From Kiritimatiellia bacterium (GTDB taxonomy: Bacteria; Verrucomicrobiota; Kiritimatiellia; RFP12; UBA1067): a stretch of 55,659 bases of DNA. The notes below the pieces were generated by a model. That model saw only the letters and a program-made list of their open reading frames with translations, did no database searches and was not told where the DNA came from. Below, one piece after another: positions 8,175 through 52,027 of this stretch (position 1 is the first letter of the stretch; each line of letters begins with the position of its first letter). The stretch lies in the NCBI GenBank assembly GCA_045598785.1, contig JAZLMR010000087.1, positions 1 through 55,659 of the forward strand, read 5' to 3'. A program made the translations under genes and the position numbers.

Positions 8175-9810
8175 TGAACATCCCCATGTCCACCTTCAGT
8201 CCGCGGCTCTTCGCCTGGTCGATCCAGGTCGGCACCGCGCCCGTCGGCTTCATCGCCCCGAGCACCCGTCCGTGCTCGTCCACTCCCGTCTGCTCAAACG
8301 CAAACAGTTCCTGCATCACGATCTGACTGCCCTCCAGCCCGGTCACCTCGGTGATGGAAGTCACCTTGCGCGAACCGTCGCTCAGCCGCGACTCGTGGAT
8401 GACGATGTCGACCGCGCTCGCAATCTGTTCGCGGATCGCCCGGCTCGGCAAATCCATGCCGCTCATCAGCACCATCGTCTCCAGGCGGGAAATGACGTCG
8501 CGCGGCGAGTTCGCGTGCACGGTCGTGAGCGAACCGTCATGGCCGGTATTCATCGCCTGCAGCATGTCCAGCGACTCGCCGCCACGGCATTCGCCGACGA
8601 TGATGCGGTCGGGTCGCATTCGCAGGCAGTTCTTGACCAGATCGCGAATCGTCACCGCCCCCTTGCCCTCGATGTTCGGCGGCCGGGCTTCGAGCCGCAC
8701 GACATGCGGCTGCTGCAGGCGGAGCTCCGCCGCGTCCTCGACGGTGACGATGCGCTCGGTTTCGGGAATGTAGCCGGAAAGCAGGTTAAGGAGCGTGGTC
8801 TTGCCCGAACCGGTGCCGCCGGCGACGATGATGTTCTTGCGCAGCTCGACACAGAGCCGCATGAAATCGGCCGCGGCCGGCGTCCAGGTGCCGAAGCGGA
8901 TGAAGTCGGCCGGCGACAGCGCGCGTTTGGAAAACTTGCGGATCGTAATCGTCGGCCCGCTCAGCGCCAGCGGCGCGATGATGGCGTTGACGCGACTGCC
9001 GTCCGCGAGCCGGGCGTCCACATACGGCTGCGACTCGTCGATACGCCGGCCAAGCGGCGCGACAATGCGCTCGATCACCGCCAGCACGCTCGCGTCGTCG
9101 GAAAACTGACAGTCCGACAGCTGCAGCTTGCCGCCGCGCTCGACATAGACCCGCTCGGGGCCGTTGACCATGATTTCCGTAACCGTTTCGTCGGCCAGCA
9201 GCTCTTCCAGCGGCCCCAGCCGAAGCGCCTCATTGAAAACGTCCTCTTCCAGCCGCAGCGGATCGATCCCCTCCGGAAGCCGCCCATTGGCGATCACCTC
9301 GTCGATGATCTGGTGTATCCGATCGCGCGCATTGTCCTCCAGCCCCTCACGGTCCACGCCCTGCAGCGTGAGCTTCTTCATGTCCATGCGCTTCAGGAGC
9401 TCGTTCTGAATCTGGGTCTGGACATTGCGCCGGAGATCGCGCAGCGGATCCGGCTCCTCCGCCGGCAGTTCCGGCTCGACCTCCGGCTCCTCCGCCCGGG
9501 GCGGCTCCTCGGCCGCCGGCGCCGCCGGATGCGGACTCACCCGCAGCATGCCCGCGCCGATCTGGACGACCTTGCCGCCGTCCAGCGGCTCGGCCCCCTG
9601 GATCACCTCGCCGTTGACCAGCGTGCCGTTGGCGCTGTGCAGGTCTTCGATGACCACCTGTCCGTCGCGAACCGTCAGGATCGCATGCCGCTCGGAAACC
9701 TCTGGATACGGGAAGCGGATATGGCAGCCTTCGCCGCGCCCGATGAGATAGGTTCCGTCAACGAGCTCGCGCTCGTCTCGGCGGCCGTCAATCAGAGTCG
9801 TAAGCACCAT
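8167..9810 (-). CDS. cpaF: Flp pilus ATPase CpaF/TadA with N-terminal FHA domain
   Basis: FHA motifs IGR, SERHA, SANGT; Walker A GGTGSGKTT; LRMRPDRIIVGECRG; AMNTGHDGSLTTVHAN. Confidence 0.93.
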   Translation of the reverse strand: MVLTTLIDGRRDERELVDGTYLIGRGEGCHIRFPYPEVSERHAILTVRDGQVVIEDLHSANGTLVNGEVIQGAEPLDGGKVVQIGAGMLRVSPHPAAPAAEEPPRAEEPEVEPELPAEEPDPLRDLRRNVQTQIQNELLKRMDMKKLTLQGVDREGLEDNARDRIHQIIDEVIANGRLPEGIDPLRLEEDVFNEALRLGPLEELLADETVTEIMVNGPERVYVERGGKLQLSDCQFSDDASVLAVIERIVAPLGRRIDESQPYVDARLADGSRVNAIIAPLALSGPTITIRKFSKRALSPADFIRFGTWTPAAADFMRLCVELRKNIIVAGGTGSGKTTLLNLLSGYIPETERIVTVEDAAELRLQQPHVVRLEARPPNIEGKGAVTIRDLVKNCLRMRPDRIIVGECRGGESLDMLQAMNTGHDGSLTTVHANSPRDVISRLETMVLMSGMDLPSRAIREQIASAVDIVIHESRLSDGSRKVTSITEVTGLEGSQIVMQELFAFEQTGVDEHGRVLGAMKPTGAVPTWIDQAKSRGLKVDMGMFSD

Positions 9811-45483: not shown

Positions 45484-46290
45484 TTACAACAAACCGCAGA
45501 AAAAGACAAAGGCGGAGCGGCTTGCCGCACGTGTCATGCCGGAACATTCGTCGGCATCTGCCGCATTCCCATAAACATATTTCCTATGATAAGCAAGATA
45601 AGCACATTGCTTATCAGAAAGAGGTTGCCGCAGGCGAAGATCAGACGAAAGATTGTAGAGCGAAACCGCCACAGAGGAAAGCTGCGGGGAAAGCAGCATT
45701 GAACCGTCATCGGCGAAAGTGATGAGGCCCTGATCGAAGAGCGCGTCGAGGTGGACGGCCAGAGGGAATCCATTGGCGGGATCGAGGCGTTCGGCATCGG
45801 TGATGGTCGGATCGTGCCAGGGCTTGGCATGGGAGGCGCGGAGCAAGGCGCGGTCAGTGATGCCGGTCACGGCGCAGGCATTGCCCCAAAGGGCGAGCTG
45901 CTTGACCTTGTAGAGATGCTGGCCGAGGCGTGTCTTCACCCGCGCAATCGACTCGGTGATCGGCGTCGCGGGTTCGCCCGGATCGGACGGCAGTTCCGCC
46001 GCCGCGGTGAACATCTTGCCAATCAGCTCAAGATGGTCGGTAATGTCATTCGGCGCATGCGGAACCGAAAGACAATCCTCGACGGCCCATTGCGGGAACG
46101 CCGCGATAAGCCCCGCCTGATTGCGCGAACCACGAAACATGAAATTCTCGCCATCATCCGCAATCGCCACCTGATTCGGTTGGTGAACGCTCGCAAACAC
46201 CGCCACCTCGTCCGTCGGCTGGTTCGGCCCAAGTTCAAAACGGTTGTTGTAAGCCGTCGTCTGGATGATGCCGTAGAGCAAAGCCGTCAT
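45484..46290 (-). CDS. HNH endonuclease (putative restriction/defence nuclease)
   Basis: RLGQ, CAVTG, LRASHAKPW, NGFPL..HLDALFDQGLITF. Confidence 0.85.
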   Translation of the reverse strand: MTALLYGIIQTTAYNNRFELGPNQPTDEVAVFASVHQPNQVAIADDGENFMFRGSRNQAGLIAAFPQWAVEDCLSVPHAPNDITDHLELIGKMFTAAAELPSDPGEPATPITESIARVKTRLGQHLYKVKQLALWGNACAVTGITDRALLRASHAKPWHDPTITDAERLDPANGFPLAVHLDALFDQGLITFADDGSMLLSPQLSSVAVSLYNLSSDLRLRQPLSDKQCAYLAYHRKYVYGNAADADECSGMTRAASRSAFVFFCGLL

Positions 46291-47057
46291 GTCGATTCGC
46301 CTTTCACGGGCATGCCACCATTCGCCCGCAATCCAGCAGCAAGCCGCTTACCTTTGGCTGTCAGACGATATTTCTGCAACCTACTGTTCGGCTTCTCAGG
46401 AATGGTAAATTCAATGATGCCGTCATCCAGCAACACGCGGGCATAACGACGACGAAGATTCTTTGTCTCAACAATGCCAAGTTGTTGTGCCAAATCAACG
46501 CACCCCATTGCTCCGTTCGACAACGCCAACACAATTTGTTCAAACCGATTAAGCGCAACAGCGACGACTGGGGTCACCCTCCCGACTGGGGGCAAGTTTT
46601 TGCCCCCAGTCCTGCCCCCAGTCGTAATCAGACCTTTCAGCGCATCAACCCGAGTTTTCTTTGCCTTACCACCTCTGACTGGGGTCAGGTTTTTGACTGG
46701 GGTCAGGTTCGTGACTGGGGTCACCTTCTCATTGCGCCAGATGATCGTCTTGAAGTCCACATTGTCCGGACAATACTCCGGATCGGGCAAGCCCCACGCG
46801 CGACACTTGTTGATGATATCGCCCGTACCGCTGCCGGACTTCTCAACATAGCTCGTCCACGACATCGCCCGTGCGTCGCAAGACCGAACCTCGTCCAGAT
46901 ACACCTTCTGCGGCGAGCGATTGCACGCCACCGTTTCCTCAAACAGGAATGGATCGAAGAACAGCTTCAATACGCGATCTTTCCGAATCGCCGCCGCAAT
47001 CGCCTTCCGTTCCTTTGAGAACTCTCGCTGTACGCTCGATATGAACACCCGATACAT
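46287..47057 (-). pseudogene. Internally deleted DUF4062 / HATPase-tail / winged-helix protein
   Basis: VFISSVQREF...YLDEVRSCD joined directly to ARAMSWTSYVEKSGSG...; C-terminal FTIPEKPNSRLQKYRLT wHTH. The reading frame is open. Confidence 0.65.
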
Positions 47058-47064
47058 CTTATCG

Positions 47065-47118
47065 ACCTCCGACTCACATTATACCATCAACTCGGAACCT
47101 CGCCGAGAATCCGGTCGC
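47065..47118 (-). repeat. 54-bp promoter+RBS cassette, copy 1
   Basis: 49/54 identical to 50753-50806; contains TGGTATAAT and GGAGGT on the minus strand. Confidence 0.9.
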
Positions 47119-48250
47119 TCAGGCACACGACGCGATACTTGTCAAACTTCGGCAAAGTAAAGCCCCCTTCACCAGCGTTCTCCAGTCCAGCCGTAACGAT
47201 GTCGCCCATCTCATGACAACGTTGATAGAGCTCCTGCTTGGTCGGGAGCCGATCAATCGTCGGGTAAAGCGAGAGGAAGAGCATCCGTCCCTCGGCGCAG
47301 AACTTTTCTTTTTCTCTCGTCGGATGCCAGCGATCGTAGAACCCTTCGGGAGACAAGACGACCCAGCGTCCGCCAGCCGCGGCAATGGCGTTGCCACATT
47401 CTTTTTCCAACGGGCTCATGAAGGTTCCGACTCCCGCACCGCCAGGGCCGATGCGAGCGCAATCTTCGACCATCGCAACCCACTCGCGAGAACCGGGTTT
47501 CGTCGCGCGATGGCCCTTTACGGCCTTTAGAACCGGCAGCTCAAGAATCGCCAAATTGCCATAGGCAAACCACTCGCGCCCGAGAAACGAGACCTTTCGA
47601 ACCTTACCGAAATACTGGCGGTTCTGCTGTCGCAGCCAGGCTCGCTCGGGGTTCTCGCGAATGTAGCGCGTAAACGCCGCGAGCTGGCCGTCTTTCTTCA
47701 CGATCCAATCGTGCCAGTCGCGCTCGAAGATCGGCGGCGGTTTGCCCGACGGAGGAACGTTGCCCGACGGAGCGGGCAACACAACACTCTGATCGTTAGA
47801 CGGCCCGCCCATCATCAGAGTGCTGTCTGGGCGGTTCCGTCCGCCCGACATTCCCTCCACCTCCCAGTAAGCCGCCGTCAGCGCCTTCATCAGCTGGTAA
47901 ACGTACTTGCCGAGCGCCAGCTGATCACCCGTGTCTTTGATGTGGATCAGCAGGTGAATGTGATCGGGCATTACGATGAAACAGTCAATCGGCCAAAGCC
48001 CCCACCACTTCGTATGAAACTCGCGAATCACCCGCGCAAACGCCGTTGCCAGCTCATTGGCAATCAAGTACCGTCTTCGACCTTTCGCGTCTTTCGGCGG
48101 AGCCTTCTCCTTCGTAATCTCGCAAAACGGCCGCAGCCCCTTCACCCGCTTCAGCGTCACCATGTAGAAGTAGGACTTCGTGTAATCGAACCCCTTCAGC
48201 CGCTTCATGGTGGCCTTCGTAAGCTTAATTGTCATCGTTTGCGTTGACAT
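47087..48250 (-). CDS. HUH Y1/RAYT-like transposase fused to a DprA/SLOG-like domain (paralog 1)
   Basis: FDYTKSYFYMVTL, VMPDHIHLL, WHDWIV, YIRENP; C-terminal AYGNLAILELP...EGRMLFLS. Confidence 0.8.
   Translation of the reverse strand: MSTQTMTIKLTKATMKRLKGFDYTKSYFYMVTLKRVKGLRPFCEITKEKAPPKDAKGRRRYLIANELATAFARVIREFHTKWWGLWPIDCFIVMPDHIHLLIHIKDTGDQLALGKYVYQLMKALTAAYWEVEGMSGGRNRPDSTLMMGGPSNDQSVVLPAPSGNVPPSGKPPPIFERDWHDWIVKKDGQLAAFTRYIRENPERAWLRQQNRQYFGKVRKVSFLGREWFAYGNLAILELPVLKAVKGHRATKPGSREWVAMVEDCARIGPGGAGVGTFMSPLEKECGNAIAAAGGRWVVLSPEGFYDRWHPTREKEKFCAEGRMLFLSLYPTIDRLPTKQELYQRCHEMGDIVTAGLENAGEGGFTLPKFDKYRVVCLSDRILGEVPS
47759..47848. repeat. Inverted pair of REP-like hairpins inside the transposase CDS
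   Basis: Copy A 47759-47793 (minus) and copy B 47814-47848 (plus). Confidence 0.8.
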
Positions 48251-48271
48251 GTTGTCTAAACCGCTCTCGCC

Positions 48272-48306
48272 ATCCGAGTGTTGTCCGGGCGGCCCCGTCC
48301 GCCCGG
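48272..48306 (+). repeat. Third REP-like hairpin, upstream of the transposase
   Basis: atccgagtgttgt-ccgggcgg-ccccgt-ccgcccgg. Confidence 0.8.
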
Positions 48307-48317
48307 TGCCGATGTGA

Positions 48318-49037
48318 CTACCGATATTTCATCTGGCTCAGCGTCTGCGCTTCGTAGGCGAGCTTGAAAGCCACCGCCGCGAGCTTGGGCTGTTCGTTTT
48401 CAACAAGCACAAGCGGCTGACGCCGCGAGATCTCAAGATCAACCAGCAGCTGCGCGACGTCAACCGGCCTGAAGATGTCGGGAATCGTCATGAGCGCACC
48501 GGTATCCATGAAGCAATTCCACGACGGATCGCAAAACGGCAAGAGTCCCGTCGCATAGACTTCGCCGCAGCCCTCATGGAAATGCTCGCTACCCGCGACA
48601 TCAACCAAAACCACTTCCTGCTGGGCTAACAGATCGACACACTTTACGCCAAAACCCTTGCGAGACTTGACAGGTCTGAGCAAGGTAAAGCGATAGCGGC
48701 TCATAACCTCGGCGACTTCACGCTTCTCTGCGTCATCAGAAGCGCCATACTTGTCAATGTAATGTCTCCGAGGCGACGGGCCGGCTCGATCATTGAGGAG
48801 CAGCGCGTAGTCGAGGATCAGCGTGTTTTCGGCCTCGTGGTTCTCGCCTTCCTCGTACCCTTCTCGCGGCGTAACGCCATTGTAAAGCCGATGCGCCGCC
48901 GACTTGAGCGCGTCATCGCCCAGCAGCGGCTGCATCACCTCTGCTACTTCGCGTGCCGTCAAGGTCCGCAGTCTGCGATATTCGGTCAGCGCTCTTGCGC
49001 GGTCGTCTTTGTTCTTCATCCATGCTGTACTTGCCAT
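48318..49037 (-). CDS. Hypothetical protein (239 aa)
   Basis: GAAAGGTG SD. The FTLL...GFGVKCVDLL...VLVDVAGS segment recalls the core of SEC-C-associated proteins, but there is no SEC-C motif. Confidence 0.65.
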   Translation of the reverse strand: MASTAWMKNKDDRARALTEYRRLRTLTAREVAEVMQPLLGDDALKSAAHRLYNGVTPREGYEEGENHEAENTLILDYALLLNDRAGPSPRRHYIDKYGASDDAEKREVAEVMSRYRFTLLRPVKSRKGFGVKCVDLLAQQEVVLVDVAGSEHFHEGCGEVYATGLLPFCDPSWNCFMDTGALMTIPDIFRPVDVAQLLVDLEISRRQPLVLVENEQPKLAAVAFKLAYEAQTLSQMKYR

Positions 49038-49146
49038 AACTTCACCTTTCTGTTTCTATAGAGCTTGCACTTCAAATTCATCGGGCACTTCTTTTCTCAT
49101 CTTGACAGCCCCTGCCATCTTCGGGCGCTGGCGCAACAAAGCTACA

Positions 49147-50748
49147 CTATTTCTGTCTTTTCAGCACATTACGGCCCTTCTGCGTAATGAAATAACGCAA
49201 CCGCGAATTGTGAAGCGACAGTCCTGCCTCTGGGACAATCAAGCCTGCTCGAATGGCTGGGTTGATGTAATTTGCACGAAATGTAGGACGATGCACAATT
49301 GACAAGGTCGTACGAAGTGCAGCTGCCGTTTGTGGTCCGTTCATCAGCACATTTAACAATGACAAAACCTGGGGTGGCACTGGGTCGGTCACTGGATCGG
49401 TCACTGGGTCGGTCACCGGGTCACTAACTGGGTCACTAACTGGGTTGGTTACTGGGTCGGTCGGATTCAATTCCCGTACCGTTTCAGCATCTGCCCTTAA
49501 GAACATCTTGTGGATCGGCAGCACGAACGTGAAGAAATCCCGATGCGAATTCGTCTCCAAGACCGGCTTCGGCGATCCGTTTTTCTCCGCCGCGCTCAGG
49601 ATGACCGGATATCCCGTATTACGCGCCTCCGCAAGATCCAGCTCCTTCAGGAACTCGCCTATGCGTCGATTGCGATCACCCTTTGACAGAAGACAGAGGC
49701 GTTTCAGGTCTGCCGTCTTAATTGATCGATCAGGACCAGGGATGCTGGTGATCGTCATTTGCTCAGGCGTGAACGTCACGACAATTGGCTCCGGTTTGCT
49801 GTACGACTTATGATAGACCGCGTTGACCAATGCCTCCTCGACGGCATCATACGGATAATTCCAATGCCGTTCGGCCTTTGCTCGACCCGAGACCTTGAAT
49901 ATCTTCTCCTTGAGAACATAGTTCTTGATGTAGTCCAACGCCGACCGAAGCTGGATGTGCAACGGGCCCTTGAAATACTTCTCGACCATTCCCTGGCCCG
50001 TCGGATCGGGCTTGTCCACGATTTCGATCCACGCATAGCGGAAGAAGTTCTCCGGGTGCGGATTGAAGAACATGAGTCCGACGTTCAACGGCTTGATGAG
50101 CTCTTCCGCACCGCTGACAATGCGCAGCCGCTTCCCCAGCTCCAGCGGGGACATCTCTTCGGCTGCCGGATAAAGCTCGCTCCCCACTTCGCGCAGATAA
50201 TCCGCAATCAGGTTGACCTTCAGATCCGCCACATCCGCCTGCATGTTCGGGCGATCGTCAAACGGCACGTCCCCCGCCATCTCGAAAAGCTCCTTCTCAA
50301 TCAGGCGAGAGGCCCTGACCGTGCTCGCCATCTTGCGGACATAGTACGCCCTTGGAGACTTCCCCTTCTTCAGAATCCGCTCGGGACAGGAATAGGGCCG
50401 CTCACAGCCGCCGGGCGCCCACACGATCAGCAAGGTCTTCCCCAGATATTCAACGGGCTCGACAACCGGCAGGTACAGCGGTTCGATGAGATGGCAAACA
50501 CCCAAGAGTTCCTTCTGGATCTGATCAACCGCCCCCGTCGGCAATCCCTTGACCGGAAACACCGGCTTACCGTCCTTCTCGGCGACGCCCAGGATGATAT
50601 ACCCACCGCCCCAGTTGTCGATGTCATTCGCAAAGGCGCAAAGCGTATGCAGCACCTTCTCAGGATTCCACCCTTCCTTGTACTCGATCCTCGCCCACTC
50701 CACCTTGCGGTGGTTCACGAGATCGTCAATGTTCACTGGTAACGCCAT
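49147..50748 (-). CDS. Schlafen/AlbA_2 + HATPase-like (RecG C-terminal type) + winged-helix protein
   Basis: IEYKEG, LCAFAND, GGYIILGV; YPYDAVEEALVNAVYHKSY; RNRRIGEFLKELDLAE..TG; C-terminal wHTH. Confidence 0.88.
   Translation of the reverse strand: MALPVNIDDLVNHRKVEWARIEYKEGWNPEKVLHTLCAFANDIDNWGGGYIILGVAEKDGKPVFPVKGLPTGAVDQIQKELLGVCHLIEPLYLPVVEPVEYLGKTLLIVWAPGGCERPYSCPERILKKGKSPRAYYVRKMASTVRASRLIEKELFEMAGDVPFDDRPNMQADVADLKVNLIADYLREVGSELYPAAEEMSPLELGKRLRIVSGAEELIKPLNVGLMFFNPHPENFFRYAWIEIVDKPDPTGQGMVEKYFKGPLHIQLRSALDYIKNYVLKEKIFKVSGRAKAERHWNYPYDAVEEALVNAVYHKSYSKPEPIVVTFTPEQMTITSIPGPDRSIKTADLKRLCLLSKGDRNRRIGEFLKELDLAEARNTGYPVILSAAEKNGSPKPVLETNSHRDFFTFVLPIHKMFLRADAETVRELNPTDPVTNPVSDPVSDPVTDPVTDPVTDPVPPQVLSLLNVLMNGPQTAAALRTTLSIVHRPTFRANYINPAIRAGLIVPEAGLSLHNSRLRYFITQKGRNVLKRQK
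49379..49462. repeat. 12-bp coding tandem repeat x7 (TDPV/SDPV)
   Basis: actgggtcggtc-type units. Confidence 0.9.
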
Positions 50749-50752
50749 AATC

Positions 50753-50806
50753 ACCTCCACCTCAAATTATACCATCAACCCGGAACCTCCCCGAGAATCC
50801 GGTCGC
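50753..50806 (-). repeat. 54-bp promoter+RBS cassette, copy 2
   Basis: Near-identical to 47065-47118. Confidence 0.9.
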
Positions 50807-50839: not shown

Positions 50840-52027
50840 TCATTCTGCACTACGAATACCAACAGCTGCTCTGGCAAGTGATTCAACCTGAGAAGGCACA
50901 ACGCCCCTGTAGGCGATTTCAATCGCACCTTCGCCCGAAAGCAATTGTGCCAGCCGATTAAGCACGCAGGCATCAAGCCTCGTCATCTTTTTCTCACCGG
51001 GAAGATAAGGCCATCCGACAGGCGCCAGCATCAGCAAATTCCCGGCTGCGCACTGGTCAAAGAGCTTCCCGCCCGGCTTGTAAAGCGGGGAAAAGCCCTT
51101 GTTGGAAAGGGTTATCACCTTGTGTCCCGCCACGAAGGCCCGTCGCGCGATCTCGCGCTCGCCTTCGCTGATGCACGGAGAGACCAAGACCGCGCCATGC
51201 GCCGCCTCGTCCAACAGGGCTTCGCTCGTCGTTCGGAACTCGTCGCTCGCAACACGCGGTTCGCGATCTTTGAGAATCGCCCCCTTGCCGTCACGTTGGT
51301 AGGCGAAGAATCGACGCGAGCATTGCACCTGCAAAATTGACGGGGCCTTCAGCAGATGGTGGTTGCCAATAGCCGAGAAATGCCCAACAACGCCTCCGCC
51401 AAGGTCGACCGGCAGATCGCGCAACACCGTGAACAACTCTGGGTGAGCGCGTTTCTCCCAGAGACGGCGCGGGTTATCCGCAAGATAGGCGAGCTCATGG
51501 TCTATCGCCGCCTTGTCAAAGAGAATCGTATCGACATAACCCTCGGCGAACAGCGGCCCAGGGCTTTTCAGCCCTGGCGCACAGGCCCCTTGCGCCTCGG
51601 CTGAAAAGCCGAGGGTCGCCCAATAGGCCTTGGTGGCCGCGCCCTTGAGACCCCGTATCGCGTAACCAACCGGCTTTTTCATCGACCGTTTGACACGCAA
51701 GACAAGATGAAGATGATCAGGCATCACCTGCACGCCCAGCACTTCAATCTCTGGGCTGAACTCGGGTATGCGCCAGACGAAGCTCTCAACCAACTGCCCG
51801 AGATCGGTCAGCGCCACGAAGGCCCCGCGTCCCTTCTCGTAGCCCAACGACCCCAAAAGGTTTGCCCGCCGATCCGCCAACGTGATCGTGATCTGATAGG
51901 CACCCCGTCCACAGTAATCCCAATTGTGACAACGACGCCCCATCCGATGAACGACATCGCGCATCAACGCGCCCGTGTCATCATCGTAATGCCACCCAGG
52001 TGGTGCAACTGGAACGTCAGCGCTCAT
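50840..52027 (-). CDS. HUH Y1/RAYT-like transposase fused to a DprA/SLOG-like domain (paralog 2)
   Basis: WDYCGRGAYQITI, VMPDHLHLVL, GYVDTIL, YLADNP; C-terminal AIGNHHLL..P...CSR, GAVLVSP, GNLLML, NRLA. Confidence 0.82.
   Translation of the reverse strand: MSADVPVAPPGWHYDDDTGALMRDVVHRMGRRCHNWDYCGRGAYQITITLADRRANLLGSLGYEKGRGAFVALTDLGQLVESFVWRIPEFSPEIEVLGVQVMPDHLHLVLRVKRSMKKPVGYAIRGLKGAATKAYWATLGFSAEAQGACAPGLKSPGPLFAEGYVDTILFDKAAIDHELAYLADNPRRLWEKRAHPELFTVLRDLPVDLGGGVVGHFSAIGNHHLLKAPSILQVQCSRRFFAYQRDGKGAILKDREPRVASDEFRTTSEALLDEAAHGAVLVSPCISEGEREIARRAFVAGHKVITLSNKGFSPLYKPGGKLFDQCAAGNLLMLAPVGWPYLPGEKKMTRLDACVLNRLAQLLSGEGAIEIAYRGVVPSQVESLARAAVGIRSAE

Follow-up and report, generated by a model that had tools for sequence, protein, structure and literature searches.

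Among domesticated transposases that coexist with their own repeats, the best-known example is provided by the REP-associated tyrosine transposases (RAYTs) and the repetitive extragenic palindromes (REPs), a pairing studied mostly in Proteobacteria and Cyanobacteria and for repeats with GTAG feet. Here we describe a family of REP-like hairpins and the RAYT-like gene that carries them in a 55,659-nucleotide contig of a Kiritimatiellia bacterium (GenBank assembly GCA_045598785.1, contig JAZLMR010000087.1), hereafter termed the window (contig C87 of a 111-contig assembly; 62% G+C, 85% complete). An initial annotation had noticed three hairpins in and upstream of a transposase gene at 47087..48250 on the minus strand. 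The hairpin family is real, it is linked to the gene family across genomes, and it occupies a fixed place in the gene in a fixed orientation. The best explanation is a REPtron-like unit, composed of the gene of a Y1 HUH nuclease and its own class of non-GTAG REP-like hairpins, to which we assign a probability of about 0.7.

In the REPtrons of E. coli (TnpAREP) and Pseudomonas (REPIN-RAYT), as described in two published accounts (PMC6006769, PMC5581495), a low-copy Y1 gene with the Y...NP motif is accompanied by GC-rich footed hairpins. The Kiritimatiellia locus has the same components, and it also shares with these systems the inverted doublets, a hairpin subtype specific to each gene or paralog, and the dispersal of the hairpins in some genomes. 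In contrast to them, the loop sequence is conserved here, copy numbers are small, the enzyme has over twice the length and a large C-terminal domain, and the most constant copies are located within the gene. The foot does not conform to GT[AG]G; therefore the hairpins constitute a different REP class, as had been anticipated in the initial annotation.

The survey by Quentin et al. 2018 (PMC6006769) gives Y---NP as the signature of class 2 TnpA-Y1 proteins and, for subclasses 2.6 and 3, also admits atypical structures that lack GTAG. For subclass 2.4 (Bertels group 4; Cyanobacteria and Bacteroidetes) it describes in-frame REPs inside tnpAREP, in a stretch between beta3 and alphaC whose highly variable length and sequence are attributed to short DNA repeats; this subclass has NH[IFV]H, WQ and YIxNNP motifs, a median length of 194 aa, and REPs with GT[AG]G or a 'double foot'. 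The locus studied here resembles subclass 2.4 in the presence of REPs in frame inside the transposase gene and of a variable, repeat-derived stretch, and differs from it in the motifs (DH[IL]H, W(H)DW and YIRENP), the protein length (387 aa) and the non-GTAG foot; the insertion appears to lie after alphaC and not before it. REPs inside genes, and REP-decorated REPtrons in species without REP families, are also described by Di Nocera et al. 2013 (PMC3733652). An in-frame REP in a transposase gene is thus already known, and the novelty of the present case lies in the foot, the loop site, and the enzyme clade with its C-terminal domain. Literature searches on tyrosine transposases of Kiritimatiellae and on in-frame TnpAREP insertions did not turn up this TnpA-Y1/RAYT-like clade, its hairpin class or the insertion site; the former gave only an unrelated paper, and among the papers listed by the latter Quentin et al. 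alone mention TnpAREP.

The three 35-nt copies were confirmed at the places and on the strands assigned to them previously. Copy A (47759-47793, minus strand) is sense to the gene and consists of foot ATCAGAGTGTTGT, stem GTTGCCCG/CGGGCAAC and loop CTCCGT, with the peptide DQSVVLPAPSGN. Copy B (47814-47848, plus strand) is antisense to the gene, with foot ATCAGAGTGCTGT, stem (C)TGGGCGG/CCGCCCG(A), loop TTCCGT and the peptide SGGRNRPDSTLM. The intergenic copy C (48272-48306, plus strand) has foot ATCCGAGTGTTGT, stem CCGGGCGG/CCGCCCGG and loop CCCCGT. The common architecture is a foot of 13 nt followed by a GC stem of 8 bp that is closed by a YYCCGT loop; the proposed 8-bp stem holds for A and C, but in B it is replaced by 6 bp, a 1-nt bulge and then 4 bp using TGT from the foot. 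Copies A and B, with a 20-nt spacer (47794-47813) separating their inward-facing feet, make up an inverted doublet of 90 nt, located between the HUH motif and the presumed catalytic tyrosine. As claimed, the doublet is translated in frame within the gene, the reverse complement of B giving MSGGRNRPDSTLMM and A giving DQSVVLPAPSGNV. A gap of 67 nt separates the ATG of the 387-aa open reading frame (ORF) at 48250 from the stop codon of the preceding ORF at 48318, and copy C occupies this gap, 22 nt upstream of the former and 12 nt below the latter. It thus lies within the ~1 kb in which the repeats of REPtrons flank their gene; flanking copies occur in relatives as well.

The foot ATCMGAGTGYTGT has exact matches in the window only in A, B and C, and only three matches in the entire 2,059,518-base assembly when one mismatch is allowed. 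An assembly-wide scan for a perfect 6-bp stem with a YYCCGT loop returned five matches, namely A, B, C and two others without the foot. Covariance model R2 (see below) detected the three copies in the genome (A, E 8.6e-8; C, E 9.1e-8; B, E 2.5e-6) and no further match at E<=1 among the best 150 of 2792 candidates scored. A chance origin of the copies is ruled out by this rarity of the foot, the stem-loop and the R2 matches. As single-stranded DNA the copies fold with -9.4 kcal/mol (A, z -3.3), -10.3 kcal/mol (B, z -3.3) and -11.2 kcal/mol (C, z -3.8). The 96-nt doublet region (47756-47851, minus strand) reaches -29.7 kcal/mol (z -5.4; 0/200 shuffles as good), and in this fold the feet of A and B pair mutually, yielding three stacked hairpins in a REPIN-like arrangement. 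The stems of A and C differ at 5/8 positions, all five compensated; those of B and C are almost identical, and therefore the covariation within the window rests on the comparison of A with B and C. Accordingly, the proposal of a conserved foot and loop with a changing but paired stem is borne out in the window for A versus B and C, but not between the near-identical B and C.

To follow the family beyond this genome, two covariance models were used, R1 built from 10 copies and R2 from 24 matches, and R2 was applied at E<=0.05 to 80 loci encoding relatives of the protein (one genome per species, 481 kb). The scan for further copies suggested in the initial annotation was productive, revealing 33 matches in 14 of the 80 loci as well as copies on contigs without the gene. 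All 14 loci belong to Kiritimatiellae-type relatives at least 47% identical to the protein; none of the Bacteroidales and Firmicutes relatives among the 80 loci had a match. Most matches (23) are located in the stretch between the HUH and Tyr motifs, four lie within 200 nt upstream of the gene, three at the 3' end of the match, one elsewhere in the gene and two far away. In each of the ten loci with two loop matches the antisense copy precedes the sense copy, with the feet facing inward, as in the window; the gene loci from G029, G044, G095 and G009 have the same arrangement. These loci are in part non-independent, since L013 and L014 derive from a single bin and the G095 locus equals L005 over the aligned region. 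Across the relatives the foot GAGTGYTGY and the loop YYCCGT are constant and the stem sequence is free, with foot variants GAGTKTTGY, GCGTTTTGC and TAAGCGTGGTGC. Rfam contains no family for the hairpin, and chance matches of palindrome type were far below the cut-off.

In the alignment of the 24 matches (A4), 91.9% of the cells are paired and 5/8 pairs changed on both sides (44 cells), a count biased toward pairing by the fit of the alignment to the model. None of 500 shuffles matched the observed percentage of paired cells, number of cells changed on both sides, or covariation score, and in slid controls with the partners moved by 1-3 columns only 34-47% were paired. Two other measures did not discriminate: the number of pairs with two-sided change was reached by 442/500 shuffles, and the number of pair types by 168/500. 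These data also bear on the possibility that the feature is selected at the protein level, as a low-complexity linker kept for its peptide, with incidental palindromy. Peptide units of A/B type do recur in the hypervariable stretch and in some N- and C-terminal extensions of the relatives, and the A-type copies keep both stem and peptide VLPAPSGN in 7/7 aligned loci. The stem changes, however, alter the peptide and keep the pairing, being compensated at 5/8 pairs; copy C does not encode protein, nor do many of the copies in relatives; and copies are found in both orientations and in differing frames, so that one hairpin in G044 is read as GRTGPATQNS in another ORF and as AGRGRPHNTLI in the gene. 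We thus regard the linker as a scarcely credible explanation; the recurring peptide units look as translated copies of a DNA repeat would.

The association of hairpin and gene was assessed in 101 genomes of the same order, including that of the window, using R2 at E<=0.01 for the hairpin and E<=1e-20 for the protein. The hairpin was found in 18 genomes and the gene in 34; 15 genomes have both, 3 only the hairpin, 19 only the gene and 64 neither. The odds ratio is 16.8, as calculated over genomes that are related and hence non-independent, and the three hairpin-only genomes have weak matches (E 0.003-0.007). The proposed co-occurrence with the transposase is therefore observed, and with the copies found by comparison it supports a non-GTAG REP class tied to the enzyme. 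All hairpin counts per genome are lower bounds (strict filters, best 65 candidates scored per genome, metagenome bins); at most 17 matches were scored in any relative, and three in the window's genome.

REPs of REPtron systems are typically dispersed in many copies, mostly between genes. Some of the present relatives also have dispersed copies. Contigs that carry the hairpin without the gene number six in G029, seven in G009 and at least seven in G097. In G029 the dispersed copies have in common only a 30-35-nt unit and their flanks are unique; in G009 a unit of ~90 nt is common to five copies, with tandem partial units at one locus; the G097 copies are located among other GC-rich hairpins, and the gene itself has a doublet on either side. 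One paralog of G029 has the loop doublet and two upstream copies, and the second has eight matches around and inside it that form a subtype of their own, with foot GAGTCTTGC and loop YCCCAT or CACCAT; in G029 the hairpins also form an array upstream of a paralog. Genome G044 has a second doublet 11.5 kb from the gene, with the same stems as its in-gene doublet, which lies in frame in an ORF of 1018 aa similar to SNF2/helicases (locus L107, contig C2, 3410-3483); a single copy at 8328-8367 of the same contig is in frame in a 1618-aa ORF resembling Eco57I-like methylases. All six dispersed copies of G029 lie within long open frames of GC-rich DNA that may or may not be coding; by Pfam support they adjoin recognised domains and do not fall within them.

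The 387-aa protein has the hallmarks of a RAYT-like Y1 enzyme, based on profile matches and invariant columns. Its residues 57-213 match NF047646 (REP_Tyr_transpos) with E 9.7e-9. The HUH motif MPDHIHLL (codons 94-101, 47948..47971, minus strand) includes the invariant H97 and H99, and the Tyr motif FTRYIRENP (codons 193-201, 47648..47674, minus strand) is of the Y...NP type, with Tyr196 as the presumed catalytic residue. In an alignment of 27 relatives, M94, P95, D96, H97, H99, L100 and L101 are invariant, as are R195, Y196, I197, E199 and N200, and P201 is present in at least 90%; the family forms of the two motifs, MPDH(I/L)HLL and RYI.EN(P), show little or no variation across 27/27 relatives. 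The protein collection contains 1112 relatives (E<=0.001), those with names being Kiritimatiellae, and in many of them the start codon is the equivalent of Met15. Among solved structures the A1 profile matched only ISDra2 and related TnpA (E 0.18-0.55), with MPDHVHLL of ISDra2 aligned to the HUH motif; the short relative P0094 gave nothing at E<=10. Neither Y1 protein of the window (a paralog is described below) has a match in PADLOC or PHROGs.

The C-terminal domain (residues ~215-360, 47171..47608, minus strand) is a highly conserved block of ~150 residues with dense invariant columns, which is also present in the paralog and in Bacteroidales relatives. It has no Pfam family in 27/27 members, and no Pfam, NCBIfam, PHROG or PADLOC family was found for it. 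A DprA-like (PF02481) fold was considered from a likeness seen by eye in a plausible register, and was rejected as lacking significance: hhalign of alignment A1 against seven DprA domains gave E 0.65 (probability 0.1%), alignment A7 gave E 0.33, and the Atlas lead for this fold was only 0.77.

A Y1 HUH core, and small single-stranded DNA hairpins as recognition elements, are also typical of the IS200/IS605 elements IS608 and ISDra2, according to the survey (PMC6006769). One could therefore view the gene and its flanking hairpins as an autonomous insertion sequence of this type, with the hairpins as its subterminal ends; in G097 and G029 the gene does have hairpins on either side, and in the window the HUH half of the gene lies between B and C, a pair of direct repeats at a distance of 458 nt. 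However, TnpA of IS200/IS605 elements has a Y...Q motif and ~150 aa, occurs in many near-identical copies and often has tnpB adjacent, and none of these traits was seen here. The Y...NP motif is the signature of class 2 and of TnpAREP (PMC6006769), not the Y...Q of IS200; the protein has 387 aa including a large extra domain; each genome has one to three divergent copies and no identical ones; the most constant hairpins are in the gene, not at its ends; and the dispersed copies are ~35-nt units without the gene. An insertion sequence is thus a very unlikely explanation.

The alignment of the proteins breaks between the post-HUH helix (LGKYVYQLMKAL) and the strand IFERDWHDWIV, and A and B lie exactly inside this hypervariable stretch. 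From the sequence pattern, the insertion site may be placed in the loop alphaC:beta4, after the post-HUH helix. The coding flanks of the window and locus L003 share 94% identity, compared with only 71% for the stretch they enclose. The orthologous B position is occupied by one of three unrelated stems, each fully paired: GGGCGG (window), AATGGCCG (four loci) or GTGGCCGG (two loci). The A stem and its peptide are kept as described above. The pattern at the B position fits replacement by another family member, not slow compensatory drift. Immediately beside A, a partial tandem unit with an 18-nt period (47742-47756) copies the 3' half of A (87% identity to 47760-47774) and encodes PSGNVP-PSGKPP; in the aligned loci of relatives, PAPSGN-type units next to A are present in 1-3 repeats. 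These 18-nt partial units and the tandem array in G009 (locus L090, intergenic) suggest hairpin slippage.

Nine gene matches of all lengths carry one or two in-frame stops (including G057:C48, G092, G080, G022, G010, G052:C51 and G029:C162), and other genes match in two pieces with the break at the hairpin loop (e.g. G009:C5, G036, G055:C79 and G099). The loop may be the site where these genes decay or grow. Public sequencing runs contained at most 0.17 of the sampled words, and the placements at 85% likeness were of relatives' contigs only. Those contigs had low depth over 47752-47845, with single-contig joints that skip 72-258 nt around the doublet; the joints were rejected as evidence of excision or transcription, since they represent alleles of other organisms at 85% likeness.

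The window contains a paralog of 395 aa (50840..52027, minus strand), 23% identical to the 387-aa protein, with HUH motif MPDHLHLV, Tyr motif YLADNP and the same C-terminal domain; the genome has one close copy of the Y1 gene and this one paralog. In the same protein loop the paralog gene carries an inverted pair of hairpins of a different class (51558-51614; peptide LGFSAEAQGACAPGLKSPGP). Read on the minus strand, hairpin 1 (51595-51614) is CCTCGGCT/TTTC/AGCCGAGG and hairpin 2 (51558-51577) is CCAGGGCT/GAAA/AGCCCTGG; both have 8-bp stems, with two compensated differences, and the loop TTTC is the reverse complement of the loop GAAA. No other copy of this class occurs in the assembly, and the 71-nt stretch folds with -27.2 kcal/mol (z -4.9). 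The family of the paralog (2279 relatives) is hypervariable at the same loop.

An additional class of hairpin, GTTGCG(G)C / RGAC / G(C)CGCAAC, was observed in the HUH-to-Tyr loop of loci L124, L125, L131 and L133 (genomes G015, G071, G080 and G073), in relatives without an R2 match; where two copies are present, they again form an inverted pair. Over the 56 sources in which both motifs were located (57 intervals), the density of perfect hairpins with 8 bp or more is 2.61/kb inside the HUH-to-Tyr intervals (39 in 14.9 kb) versus 0.32/kb outside them (103 in 326 kb), and 23/57 intervals have at least one. The genes adjacent to the 387-aa ORF (45484-50760) resemble a variable or defence-type island. 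They encode an HNH endonuclease (45484..46290), a DUF4062/Fic-like_C protein (46287..47057), and a 537-aa protein with Schlafen AlbA_2 and HATPase_c_4 domains (49147..50760), which has PADLOC matches to pAgo-associated models. Short tandem peptide repeats were observed in the 537-aa protein (DPVT/DPVS, near 49380-49450) and in the DUF4062/Fic-like_C protein (256 aa; NLTPV).

In the window's genome all three copies are located at the gene, which raises the possibility that they are not mobile and act in cis, as sites on the DNA or mRNA of the gene at which its expression is controlled by the protein itself or by a host factor. Inhibitory hairpins of this kind are known in IS200. The constant place and orientation of the doublet in 10/10 loci with two loop matches would agree with such a role, as would the different hairpin pair kept in the same loop by the 23%-identical paralog and the other hairpin classes in 7/12 loci (see below). 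On the other hand, copies with unique flanks on gene-free contigs of G029, G009 and G097, and in-frame copies in unrelated ORFs of G044, are unlinked to expression of the gene, and none of the hairpins has a T-run or covers a recognisable ribosome-binding site. We consider cis-acting sites unlikely as the sole explanation; they are compatible with the REPtron-like one, to which we return.

Several observations weigh against the REPtron-like unit. The foot GAGTGYTGY departs from the GT[AG]G of the REP/RAYT systems. The protein profiles are matched below their cut-offs, PF01797 (IS200-like Y1) with E 0.0042 and 17.6 bits against 23, and NF047646 with 35 bits against a curated 80. No R2 match was found, with strict filters, in 19 of the 34 genomes that bear the gene, and when the filters were removed for 12 such R2-negative gene loci, only 3 gave R2 matches; perfect hairpins of other classes were present in the HUH-to-Tyr loop of 7/12. 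The dispersed copies are most similar to the gene-linked copies of their own genome in G009 and G097 only (2/3 genomes), and in G029 the copies of G044 are equally close, so that own-genome likeness is too weak to indicate concerted evolution. The bias of the pair count toward pairing, mentioned above, belongs here too. Finally, the window's assembly (85% complete) has no dispersed copy and no sign of activity, all three copies being at the gene. Metagenome bins tend to drop repeats.

The REPtron-like unit would have one hairpin just upstream of the gene and, inside it, an inverted REPIN-like doublet with facing feet, located in the variable loop between the post-HUH helix and the W/Tyr half of the catalytic core. 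The hairpins could be the substrate of the enzyme, as their association with the gene and the behaviour of other Y1 enzymes suggest. By analogy with E. coli TnpAREP and TnpA of IS200/IS605 elements, the hairpin would extrude on single-stranded DNA, and the protein would recognise the shape of the stem and the sequence of the foot and loop; a metal bound by the HUH motif and Tyr196 would then cut near the foot, and rejoining would move or copy the REP or the doublet. In the window's genome the family would have been reduced to the three copies at the gene. The in-gene copies may persist because they lie in a surface loop, because the doublet length (90 nt) is a multiple of three, and because such GC-rich hairpins are open in five or six of the six frames (stop-free frames: A, 5/6; B, 5/6; C, 6/6). 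In-frame palindromes that leave genes open are also known as Rickettsia palindromic elements and intragenic REPs, as described in a published account (PMC3733652), and are comparable to the ORF copies in G044. The copies in the Y1 gene keep a fixed place there, as shown above. To our knowledge, Rickettsia palindromic elements have not been reported at a conserved site in the gene of their own presumed mobilising enzyme.

We speculate, as a rather doubtful extension of the REPtron-like unit, that the in-gene doublet could be a maintained working part of the enzyme family and not a tolerated passenger, with the gene carrying the master copy of its substrate. This is suggested because the 23%-identical paralog lineages and many sub-clades each retain, in this loop, a doublet belonging to their own hairpin class; according to the survey, insertions at the presumed corresponding site in other subclasses are near the REP-recognising region (PMC6006769). 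If so, recombination could not separate enzyme and repeat, the repeat-encoded peptide could change along with the repeat specificity, and cutting at the internal copy could limit the dosage of the enzyme.

To the REP/RAYT systems the present data add a large clade of gut Kiritimatiellae whose non-GTAG hairpin has a conserved loop and whose enzyme carries an additional C-terminal domain. According to the survey (PMC6006769), subclasses that possess a large domain at the C-terminus are not associated with REPs, whereas the long Y1 forms described here have REP-like hairpins. The fixed doublet in the enzyme core, together with the swapping of stems among close relatives, offers a compact system for studying the matching of enzyme and repeat, and the hairpins provide short, well-defined candidate oligonucleotide substrates for biochemistry.

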